Origin: Escherichia coli
GTDB taxonomy: Bacteria; Pseudomonadota; Gammaproteobacteria; Enterobacterales; Enterobacteriaceae
DNA length: 64,000 nt
Strand: one strand, 5' to 3'
Assembly (NCBI RefSeq): GCF_003334765.1
Contig: NZ_QOWT01000017.1
Shown: positions 17,952-49,154 of the stretch, piece after piece
Numbering within the stretch: position 1 is the stretch's first letter
Layout: every line of letters begins with the position of its first letter
Notes under the pieces: generated by a model
What the model was told of the DNA's origin: nothing
What the model saw: the letters and a program-made list of their open reading frames with translations, nothing else
Databases searched by the model: none
Made by a program: the position numbers and the translations under genes

Positions 17952-18713
17952 TTACAGCAGACGACGCGCCGCTTCCACCACGATTTTCACCGCATGGCTT
18001 TCGGTTTGTTTCATCGTCTCAGCATTCGGGATCTCTTGCTGGGTGCGGTTAACGATAACACCCGCTACCATACCGGCACGCAGGCCCTGACTTGCACACA
18101 TGGTCAGCAGGGTTGCAGATTCCATTTCATAGTTCATTACGCCCATCGCCTGCCACTCTTCCATAGAACCTTTAAAGTGACGAACTACGCGACCAGAGTA
18201 AGTATCGTAACGTTCCTGACCTGGGTAGAAGGTATCAGAAGAAGCTGTCACGCCAACGTGAGTTGTCGCGCCAATGGATTTCGCAGCTTCAACCAGCGCA
18301 GTCGTACATTCGAAATCAGCGACAGCCGGGAATTCCAGCGGTGCGAAGTGCAGGCTCGCGCCATCCAGACGGACAGACGCCGTGGTAACCAGGACATCAC
18401 CCACATTAATATGCGGCTGAATAGCGCCCGTTGTACCGATACGCAGGAAGGTGCGAATGCCCAGCTGTGCCAGCTCTTCAACAGCAATAGAGGTAGACGG
18501 GCCGCCGATACCGGTAGAGCAGACGATAACAGGTTTACCATCCAGCTCTGCACGCCAGGTAGTGAATTCGCGGTGAGATGCCAGCTTAACCGGCTTATCC
18601 ATCAGCGCGGCGATCTTTTCCACACGATCCGGGTCGCCAGGGACGATGGCAAGCGTAGCCCCTTGTAAATCGTTTTTAGTGAGGCCGAGATGAAAAACAT
18701 CAGACTTGGACAT
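17952..18713 (-). CDS. udp: Uridine phosphorylase
   Basis: 253 aa from [13 protein letters not shown] with AGGAG RBS; track start is a TTG two codons upstream. Confidence 0.95.
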
Positions 18714-18786
18714 ATACAACTCCTCTGTGAATCGGTTTAGTCAGAAGAAGCAAAAAGACACTTTACCGAAGGGTTTAACATTTTTT

Positions 18787-18854
18787 CGTGATACTCATCA
18801 CCATGACGCAAATGCGTTGCATAAATTTACCCACCAAAAGTGATGCAAATCACA
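18787..18854 (-). promoter_or_regulatory. udp promoter region with two CRP-type sites
   Basis: cGTGA-N6-TCACc at 18787-18802 and aGTGA-N6-TCACA at 18839-18854, about 52 bp apart, upstream of udp. Confidence 0.65.
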
Positions 18855-18974
18855 TAAATCACCCTTCATTCTGCAGGACTGCATAAAAGATGAGCCGATT
18901 CAGGCAATGTGATTTGTTGCATGCTGACTATAGTTAACATTGCGCAACATTTTTATAAGGGTACGGAGAATACC

Positions 18975-19790
18975 ATGGCAACAACACAACAATCTGGATT
19001 TGCACCTGCTGCATCGCCTCTCGCTTCGACCATCGTTCAGACCCCGGACGACGCGATTGTGGCGGGCTTCACCTCTATCCCTTCACAAGGGGATAACATG
19101 CCTGCTTACCATGCCAGACCAAAGCAAAGCGATGGCCCACTGCCAGTGGTCATTGTAGTGCAGGAAATTTTTGGCGTGCATGAACATATCCGCGACATTT
19201 GTCGCCGTCTGGCGCTGGAGGGGTATCTGGCTATCGCACCTGAACTTTACTTCCGCGAAGGCGATCCGAATGATTTTGCCGATATCCCCACGTTGCTTAG
19301 CGGTCTGGTAGCAAAAGTGCCTGACTCGCAGGTGCTGGCCGATCTCGATCATGTCGCCAGTTGGGCTTCCCGCAACGGCGGCGATGTTCATCGTTTAATG
19401 ATCACCGGATTCTGCTGGGGTGGACGTATCACCTGGCTGTATGCCGCGCATAATCCACAGCTAAAAGCCGCAGTGGCGTGGTACGGCAAACTGACGGGCG
19501 ACAAGTCGCTGAATTCACCGAAACAACCTGTTGATATCGCAACCGATCTTAACGCGCCGATTCTCGGCTTATATGGTGGTCAGGATAACAGCATTCCGCA
19601 GGAGAGCGTTGAAACCATGCGCCAGGCGCTGCGGGCTGCTAATGCGAAAGCAGAGATTATCGTGTACCCGGACGCCGGGCATGCATTCAACGCTGATTAT
19701 CGCCCGAGCTATCATGCCGCATCTGCAGAAGATGGCTGGCAGCGTATGCTGGAATGGTTTAAGCAGTATGGTGGGAAGAAGTCGCTGTAA
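18975..19790 (+). CDS. dlhH: Putative dienelactone hydrolase-family carboxymethylenebutenolidase
   Basis: 271 aa from [14 protein letters not shown] with GGAG RBS; alpha/beta-hydrolase features. Confidence 0.85.
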
Positions 19791-24951: not shown

Positions 24952-25974
24952 TTAAACCTCTGTAGAGCGGTTTCCGCTGGGTGAGTTATGCCTGTTGAAA
25001 AAATCAACGATGGCGTGGAGCGCGACTGAGCGCATTGCGTCCTTTTCAAAAAGGATCTCATGGTAAGCACCTTTAATTACCAACGGCCGTCCTCCTTCGA
25101 CAGGATGGCCCGCGGCGGTGCGGAGTTCACAAAAACGGTCATGCATGCGGTTATCCACCACGCGTTCCTCTTCAGCCTGCAAGAGAAGCGTTGGCGTGGC
25201 GTCATCACCCGCACCGGCTAACACCTGTTCGCCAGCCAGAATACTTTCGCGTACCCAATGGTAGGTCGGCCCACCGACGCGAATCGTTGGGTCATCAGCA
25301 TAGAAGCGTAAGTTACGTCGATATCGCTGTCTGCTGTGGGTCAGTACGTTGATAGCAAACGGCAACGCGCGCCAGCGCCCGGTGCCTATTGCATAGCCAT
25401 CACGGAAACGTGGATGCGCTTCGGCCCAGTTGAGGATCTGCCGTGCCATAAATGACGGCATACGAATCACGATCCCAAACATTGGCGCAGTTAGCGCAAT
25501 GGCGTCACATACACCTGGATGGCGTTGCAGAAATAATGTGGAGATCGCACCGCCCATCGAATGTGCCAGTATATAGCGTTTACGCCACGGACCGGGCTGA
25601 ACCTCCTGCTGCCAGAATGCCGCCAGATCATCAACATAATCATTAAAGCGATTAACATGCCCGAGATGCGGATCGGCTAACAGGCGACCGGAACGTCCCT
25701 GCCCGCGATGGTCGATGATTAAGACATCAAACCCCAAATGGAACAGGTCATAGGCCAGTTCCGCATATTTTACGTAGCTCTCAATACGCCCCGGGCAGAT
25801 GACTACCACCCGGTCATGGTGCTGTGCGCGAAAACGGACAAAGCGCACCGGAATGTCATCCACACCAGTAAACTCTGCTTCATCACGCTGACGCCAGAAA
25901 TCAGTCAGCGGTCCCATGGTAAAAGCAGCAAACGCGTTTTCTCTTGTTTCCCAGTCTTTTTGCTGCTGAAACAT
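24952..25974 (-). CDS. pldB: Lysophospholipase L2
   Basis: 340-aa alpha/beta hydrolase with HSMGG nucleophile motif. Confidence 0.92.
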   Translation of the reverse strand: MFQQQKDWETRENAFAAFTMGPLTDFWRQRDEAEFTGVDDIPVRFVRFRAQHHDRVVVICPGRIESYVKYAELAYDLFHLGFDVLIIDHRGQGRSGRLLADPHLGHVNRFNDYVDDLAAFWQQEVQPGPWRKRYILAHSMGGAISTLFLQRHPGVCDAIALTAPMFGIVIRMPSFMARQILNWAEAHPRFRDGYAIGTGRWRALPFAINVLTHSRQRYRRNLRFYADDPTIRVGGPTYHWVRESILAGEQVLAGAGDDATPTLLLQAEEERVVDNRMHDRFCELRTAAGHPVEGGRPLVIKGAYHEILFEKDAMRSVALHAIVDFFNRHNSPSGNRSTEV

Positions 25975-43991: not shown

Positions 43992-44145
43992 GACGTATCG
44001 CCTGATTTGCTACCCGTCATGACTGTGATTCCGCCAACATCAACGGTAACACGCGGCATTCGGGATATTTCGTATGTCAAAGGTAACCGTTACCACTTTT
44101 CGCGCCTGGTTTTTTTAGTTTCACGACGAAAAAATGGTCTAAAAC

Positions 44146-44161
44146 GTGATCAATTTAACAC
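44146..44161. promoter_or_regulatory. CRP-binding site in the cyaA promoter region
   Basis: GTGATCAATTTAACAC (TGTGA-N6-TCACA class) about 155 bp upstream of the cyaA start. Confidence 0.6.
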
Positions 44162-44377
44162 CTTGCTGATTGACCGTAAAGAAAGATGCGCTACATACAA
44201 GTGTAGCACCGTTTATTCTCTGTAAATTCCTTATTACAACGGCGTGAAACGCCTGTCAGGATCCACTGCCAGACCTCATTTTACGGTTTGCGCAGGCGTC
44301 TACGTTTCACCACAACACTGACATCACTCTGGCAAGGATGTTAGGATGGACCACGGATGATAATGACGGTAACAAGC

Positions 44378-45319: not shown

Positions 45320-46056
45320 GTATCCTTGTCACCCGCCCGTCTCCCGCTGGAGAAGAGTTAGTGAGCCGTCTGCGCACACTGGGGCAGGTGGCCTGGCATT
45401 TTCCGCTGATTGAGTTTTCTCCGGGTCAACAATTACCGCAACTTGCTGATCAACTGGCAGCGCTGGGGGAGAGCGATCTGTTGTTTGCCCTCTCGCAACA
45501 CGCGGTTGCTTTTGCCCAATCACAGCTGCATCAGCAAGATCGTAAATGGCCCCGACTACCTGATTATTTCGCCATTGGACGCACCACCGCACTGGCACTA
45601 CATACCGTAAGCGGACAGAAGATTCTCTACCCGCAGGATCGGGAAATCAGCGAAGTCTTGCTACAATTACCTGAATTACAAAATATTGCGGGCAAACGTG
45701 CGCTGATATTACGTGGCAATGGTGGTCGTGAGCTAATTGGGGATACCCTGACGGCGCGCGGTGCTGAGGTCACTTTTTGTGAATGTTATCAACGATGCGC
45801 AATCCATTACGATGGTGCAGAAGAAGCGATGCGCTGGCAAGCCCGCGAGGTGACGATGGTCGTTGTTACCAGCGGTGAAATGTTGCAGCAACTCTGGTCG
45901 CTGATCCCACAATGGTATCGTGAGCACTGGTTACTACACTGTCGACTATTGGTCGTCAGTGAGCGTTTGGCGAAACTCGCCCGGGAACTGGGCTGGCAAG
46001 ACATTAAGGTCGCCGATAACGCTGACAACGATGCGCTTTTACGGGCATTACAATAA
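45316..46056 (+). CDS. hemD: Uroporphyrinogen-III synthase
   Basis: 246-aa ORF overlapping hemC stop by 4 nt. Confidence 0.93.
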
Positions 46057-48730: not shown

Positions 48731-49154
48731 TCGTTTATTATGCCACAGAGAATCGGGAAATAACATCCCTTAACACTTGTTATGAGATAATTCTGTAATC
48801 CTCTTTGCTTCCTGAGTAATAACTTCCTGAGTGAATATTTAACCTGAGCTTGATCCTACACATACTTATTATGAATGATAAAATTCATTCAATTAATAAC
48901 ACATATATTAATTGCCGTTAAAACTAAAAACAGCATCAATAATCAACGCGATATAATAAACCTGCCTTACATATCAACTGCGCCAGAGGTAGGATTGAAA
49001 ACGCTCTCCTGATTTTCCAATTCATTTTCTGGATAAATAAATAATTTATTTTTGTCACTATTATTTATGTAATCATCCTGTCAGGGAGAGGGATCTCAAT
49101 TATCAATGCTTAATTACGTCATCATTTTGATGACATGAAACCGGAGCATTTTGC

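Follow-up and report, generated by a model that had tools for sequence, protein, structure and literature searches.

The 261-bp intergenic region between udp and ysgA in this window (the whole stretch of 64,000 nucleotides that was analysed) is almost certainly the E. coli K-12 udp promoter, which is dependent on CRP and repressed by CytR. The 1-kb stretch that surrounds its two CRP sites matches E. coli K-12 MG1655 at 100% identity and occurs in 5,426 of 5,426 complete E. coli genomes. It agrees exactly with E. coli udpP (RegulonDB; Brikun et al. 1996; Gavigan et al. 1999) in the 22-mers, in their positions at -41.5 and -93.5 and in the operator oligonucleotide for CytR, and there are no differences between the two. 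Since the 1990s, the udp promoter has served as a model for CRP-CytR anti-activation, and this control region is already known, textbook material that is fully curated, so that biologically nothing is new. The value of the result is that a classic combinatorial promoter was recognised from raw sequence with its coordinates, spacing and mechanism correct. The features of the region are collected in the table below.

Table. Features of the udp-ysgA control region (window coordinates)
Feature	Position	Strand	Description or basis
udp CDS (uridine phosphorylase), the regulated gene	17952..18713	-	Open reading frame list and RefSeq annotation; sequence identical in MG1655
udp Shine-Dalgarno sequence GAGGAG	18720-18725		
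udp transcription start	18753	-	Implied by arithmetic from the RegulonDB positions -41.5 and -93.5 (Table S4, PMC3105977) and the site centres; uncertainty about 2 nt
udp -10 hexamer TAAAGT	18760..18765	-	Read from the sequence; -12 to -7 for a start at 18753
Proximal CRP site (CRP1; RegulonDB -41.5, 'activator')	18784..18805	-	22-mer CATGGTGATGAGTATCACGAAA; core 18787-18802
CytR operator (CytO)	18805..18823	-	Left half TATGCAAC (18823-18816), spacer GCA, putative right half TTTGCGTC (18812-18805)
Distal CRP site (CRP2; RegulonDB -93.5, 'dual')	18836..18857	-	22-mer TTATGTGATTTGCATCACTTTT on the udp strand; core 18839-18854
ysgA (dienelactone-hydrolase family), divergent from udp	18975-19790	+	

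The original prediction of two TGTGA-N6-TCACA-like sites at 18787-18802 and 18839-18854, centred about 52 bp apart, is borne out in every particular. The proximal core, CGTGATACTCATCACC, has two mismatches to TGTGA-N6-TCACA and is centred at 18794.5. The distal core, AGTGATGCAAATCACA, has one mismatch, is centred at 18846.5 and is the sole one-mismatch match to this motif in the 64-kb window. The distance between the two centres is 52 bp, which corresponds to 4.95 helical turns. Both sites lie upstream of udp, as had also been proposed, because this gene reads leftward on the minus strand, and the pair occupies the interval 74-141 bp 5' of the udp ATG (18713, minus strand). Both match the 22-bp palindromic CRP consensus AAATGTGATCTAGATCACATTT, which has TGTGA-N6-TCACA as its core. 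FNR-type sites were considered and ruled out, since the half-sites read GTGA/TCAC and not TTGAT/ATCAA.

The curated and experimental records agree with this assignment. RegulonDB rows (Table S4, PMC3105977) list both 22-mers for udp at the positions and with the labels given in the table, which supports the original proposal of a CRP-activated, CytR-modulated nucleoside catabolism promoter. Both 16-mers are given for a CRP peak at ysgA<>udp that was found by genomic SELEX-chip (PMC3105977), which reports binding in vitro. For binding in vivo, a CRP ChIP-seq table from ETEC H10407 (PMC4287617) contains GGTGATGAGTATCACG and TGTGATTTGAATCACT at ysgA/udp, the latter being an allelic form of the distal box. 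Through these published SELEX-chip and ETEC ChIP-seq tables, the two sites qualify as binding sites of cAMP-CRP. Direct observation, here or in the cited tables, covers the two sites with their scores, spacing and conservation, the location of the operator, and the binding of CRP both in vitro and in vivo.

To score the sites, we used a symmetric 22-bp CRP matrix derived from 116 sites that are both RegulonDB-curated and bound in genomic SELEX (Table S4 of Shimada et al. 2011, PMC3105977), with the udp sites excluded from training. The consensus of this matrix is AAATGTGATCTAGATCACATTT, and its total information content is 12.4 bits. Its scores for the two sites are good, rather than the poor ones that the original prediction had named as grounds for abandoning it. 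The distal site, at 20.9 bits, ranks first of the 63,979 positions in the window and exceeds 97% of the training sites. The proximal site, at 12.8 bits, ranks fourth of 63,979 and falls at the 44th percentile of real sites. In 400 windows simulated with a first-order Markov model, sites of at least 12.78 bits occur about 1.5 times per 64 kb, and the proximal site is therefore unremarkable by itself. A score of 20.9 bits was attained in none of the 400 simulated windows. A pair of such quality with a separation of 49-54 bp has an analytic expectation of about 2e-4 per window and was also found in 0/400 simulations.

Both sites might in principle be functionless chance matches to a short degenerate consensus. 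This reading can draw on the expected frequency of proximal-like scores and on the count of bare 10-base cores with at most two mismatches, which shows no excess and is in fact lower than in shuffles (12 observed versus 23.8 expected). However, the bare core count is too crude, and the 22-bp matrix was therefore used instead. The top rank of the distal site, the rarity of the pair, the retention of the half-sites across 80 genomes while the N6 spacers vary, and the SELEX, ChIP-seq and RegulonDB records for both sites leave this reading with a negligible probability. It is already refuted by scores, pairing, conservation and the binding tables.

The matrix scan also returns matches elsewhere in the window. 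The second-best match is AAACGTGATCAATTTAACACCT in the cyaA-hemC intergenic region (44142-44163; 13.8 bits). It is the CRP site already known for the autoregulation of the cyaA promoter, and it appears in both RegulonDB and the ETEC ChIP-seq table. A moderate candidate CRP-like site, ATAATTTATTTTTGTCACTATT (49041-49062; 11.2 bits), occurs in the intergenic DNA between hemY and aslA, about 85 bp 5' of the aslA start codon. Two further matches of 12.5-13.3 bits are located inside the pldB and hemD coding sequences (25765-25786 and 45775-45796), and these are probably due to chance, since about 1.5 such sites are expected per window.

The arrangement of the two CRP sites is conserved throughout the relatives that were compared. 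A scan with the Udp protein, using one genome per species, provided the 80 closest Udp loci, which all belong to the Enterobacterales and include Escherichia, Salmonella, Citrobacter, Enterobacter, Kluyvera, Buttiauxella, Cedecea, Kosakonia, Yersinia, Serratia, Hafnia and Rahnella. Within the 300 nt 5' of udp that were examined, 79 of the 80 loci have the tandem CRP pair. The exception is the locus of Yersinia aldovae, where an insertion in the leader moves the distal site past these 300 nt. The spacing is exactly 52 bp in 75 promoters (K-12 counted) and 53 bp in five Yersinia species. By comparison, the pair lies at a variable distance from the start codon, with proximal centres that range from -78.5 to positions beyond -200. 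In Y. artesiana and Y. aldovae, an extra 130-200 nt or so in the udp leader places the CRP pair beyond -200 from the ATG. We take this insert (…TTCGAGTTGCAGGAAGGCGGTAAGTGA…, …AAGTATGACGG…) to resemble an ERIC/IRU repeat.

A stack without gaps, made from the 75 promoters whose CRP sites are 52 bp apart, shows where the information is concentrated. Mean values are 1.88 and 1.39 bits for the two distal half-sites and 1.57 and 1.80 bits for the two proximal ones, compared with about 0.7 bits for the N6 spacers and 0.2 bits for the 20 nt that precede the distal site. The proximal GTGA...TCACGAAA is almost invariant across the 80 loci. Within E. coli, the promoter is found at 90% identity or more in 5,426/5,426 genomes, and the sampled variants carry substitutions only in the N6 spacers and flanks, with none in the half-sites. 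The 30-nt spacer between the two CRP sites contains ATG(C/T)AA(T/C) at a fixed place in most Enterobacteriaceae (most of the 75 aligned loci). This CytR motif is weak, and in Yersinia, Serratia and Rahnella it fades to the point where its conservation can no longer be recognised, as Sernova and Gelfand also reported.

The positions of the CRP sites are compatible with the start site of udp, an agreement on which the original prediction had made itself depend. The RegulonDB positions fit the two site centres, and the start that they imply falls on a T and could be 1-2 nt off. The -10 hexamer TAAAGT is always found 18 nt past the proximal 22-mer and has a mean information content of 1.81 bits (75 loci). 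A scan of 18650-19020 for sigma-70 promoters and terminators was empty, with no -35 match and no complete sigma-70 consensus promoter; this fits a class II promoter that lacks a -35 element and is otherwise uninformative. An alternative -10 element, TGTTAAAC (18780-18773), was rejected because it is too near the proximal site and is not conserved. A CRP site at -41.5 (RegulonDB), the conserved TAAAGT and the missing sigma-70 consensus are together what characterises a class II CRP-dependent promoter. If the promoter works in this way, then cAMP-CRP bound at the proximal site would overlap the missing -35 region and would activate RNA polymerase at the TAAAGT hexamer by the class II mechanism.

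The role of the distal site in activation is a separate question. According to a review summarised in PMC3454398, one CRP site is involved in activation and two in repression at cytR, deoP and udp. On the strength of this literature, the general description of the promoter may be refined such that only the proximal site activates udp, while repression by CytR requires both sites. Alternatively, the two CRP dimers could activate udp synergistically as a class III promoter, with the distal site serving mainly as an activator site and not as a scaffold for CytR. This arrangement would be in keeping with the 'dual' label of the -93.5 site in RegulonDB, with a genome-wide ChIP-exo paper that puts -93.5 sites under class III, and with nupG, tsx and cdd, where both sites do add to activation (PMC3454398). 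The same review's count of a single activating site at udp speaks against it, and we consider synergistic activation distinctly unlikely.

The preferred reading, in which the distal site mainly serves repression, places CytR in the interval between the two CRP sites. The original prediction had expected the CytR target to lie there, and a published udp operator oligonucleotide, GTAAATTTATGCAACGCATTTGCGTCATGGTG, matches 18830-18799 on the minus strand exactly. This oligonucleotide represents the natural CytR operator of udp and was used for NMR (bioRxiv 10.1101/2021.02.28.433298). The left-half octamer (18816-18823) has one mismatch to the CytR octamer GTTGCATT. The boundary of the right half is one that we infer from the 3-bp spacing stated in the same work (bioRxiv 10.1101/2021.02.28.433298), and with this boundary the right half adjoins the proximal CRP 22-mer. 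CytR operators are described as repeats related to GTTGCATT/AATGCAAC that lie between CRP sites and no more than 5 nt from one of them (PMC3454398), and TATGCAAC-GCA-TTTGCGTC at 18823-18805 conforms to this description. Two other properties of the CytR regulon are also found here. The 52-bp spacing is within the range of about 50-53 bp that keeps the CRP sites on the same helix face, and the downstream gene, udp, encodes uridine phosphorylase and is thus a gene of nucleoside uptake or catabolism.

A repression mechanism can be proposed from these elements, with the activation class, the CytR-CRP contacts and induction by cytidine all taken from the literature through secondary sources. A second CRP dimer would bind to the stronger distal site at -93.5, which is on the same face of the DNA as the proximal CRP because it is five helical turns away. 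A CytR dimer could then sit on the weak operator between both CRP dimers, where it would be held mainly by its contacts with CRP, and it may mask the activating surface of CRP, which amounts to anti-activation. If cytidine binds to CytR, then the cooperativity between CytR and CRP would be broken and activation by CRP would resume. These steps follow the description of CytR as an anti-activator whose DNA binding is weak and which two CRP dimers at the correct spacing stabilise between them, with a cooperativity that cytidine abolishes (PMC3454398; PMC4581735). Repression that is dependent on cytR and relieved by cytidine is described for E. coli udp, and likewise for the CytR protein of V. cholerae acting on udp (PMC3454398; PMC4581735). 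We found no evidence that contradicts a udp promoter under the control of CRP and CytR. Gavigan et al. are said to have found in 1999 that CytR has weaker sites overlapping both CRP sites, so that it competes with CRP.

The sole loose end, of modest interest, is the possible sharing of this region with the divergent gene ysgA. The distal site or both sites might also, or mainly, serve ysgA, which would make this a bidirectional CRP-dependent region that CytR possibly modulates too. A conserved -10-like TATAGT (18929-18934, plus strand) would give a ysgA start near 18941 and put the distal CRP centre near -94.5, not far from an upstream position at which CRP is permitted. In most genera with an adjacent ysgA, TATAGT lies 74-78 nt from the distal site, although the sequence directly upstream of that site is unconserved (0.2 bits), and ysgA is a 'predicted target' in Shimada et al. 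(PMC3105977). However, this spacing is more variable than the 52 bp that separates the two CRP sites, there is no good -35 element, and the consensus scan yielded no promoter. The literature searched gave neither a mapped ysgA start nor expression data. The CRP pair also tracks udp and not ysgA, because Yersinia, Serratia and Rahnella keep the pair and no ysgA-like start was found within 300 nt in these genera. A role in ysgA expression therefore seems unlikely, and it would in any case add to the function at udp and not replace it.

Several other elements on the ysgA side of the region are conserved. The block AGGCAATGTGATTTGTTGC (18902-18920) is maintained from Escherichia to Raoultella, as is the palindromic ACTATAGT (18928-18935) that contains the -10-like TATAGT. 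The block holds a second CytR-like octamer, GTTGCATG (18916-18923), located exactly 100 bp from the CytO octamer, as well as a weak CRP-like 22-mer (5.6 bits). It is conceivable, although we would give this slightly less credence than a ysgA role in general, that the distal site is shared as the CytR anchor at -93.5 of udp and as a CRP site at about -94 of ysgA, and that the block with its CytR-like octamer could put ysgA under CRP/CytR control.

The udp promoter can be placed among the other promoters of the CytR regulon by the spacings of their CRP sites, which we computed for its relatives from the RegulonDB positions (Table S4 of PMC3105977). A comparison with deoP2 and cdd had been suggested at the outset, and the 52 bp of udp falls between the 53 bp of deoP2 (-93.5/-40.5) and the 50 bp of cdd (-92.5/-42.5). 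The corresponding values are 50 bp for nupG, 53 bp for ppiA and rpoH, 49 bp for nupC and 34 bp for tsx. In nupG, ppiA, rpoH and nupC, as in udp, the CRP sites are paired at a distance of 49-53 bp, and the proximal one is near -41 or -42. Their gene functions differ from that of udp, and the spacing between CytR half-sites reaches 9-11 bp in nupG and rpoH. The cdd promoter shares with udp its repression by CytR, the approximate CRP positions and a role in pyrimidine nucleoside catabolism. Unlike udp, its proximal site is the stronger (21.3 versus 11.6 bits), it has three overlapping CRP positions, and both of its CRP sites add to activation (PMC3454398). The reference CytR/CRP promoter, deoP2 of deoCABD, has the same tandem CRP sites with CytR between them and also drives nucleoside catabolism, and its distal site is stronger than its proximal site, as is true of nupG and udp. 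The two CytR half-sites of deoP2 are 0 bp apart, whereas those of udp are separated by 3 bp.
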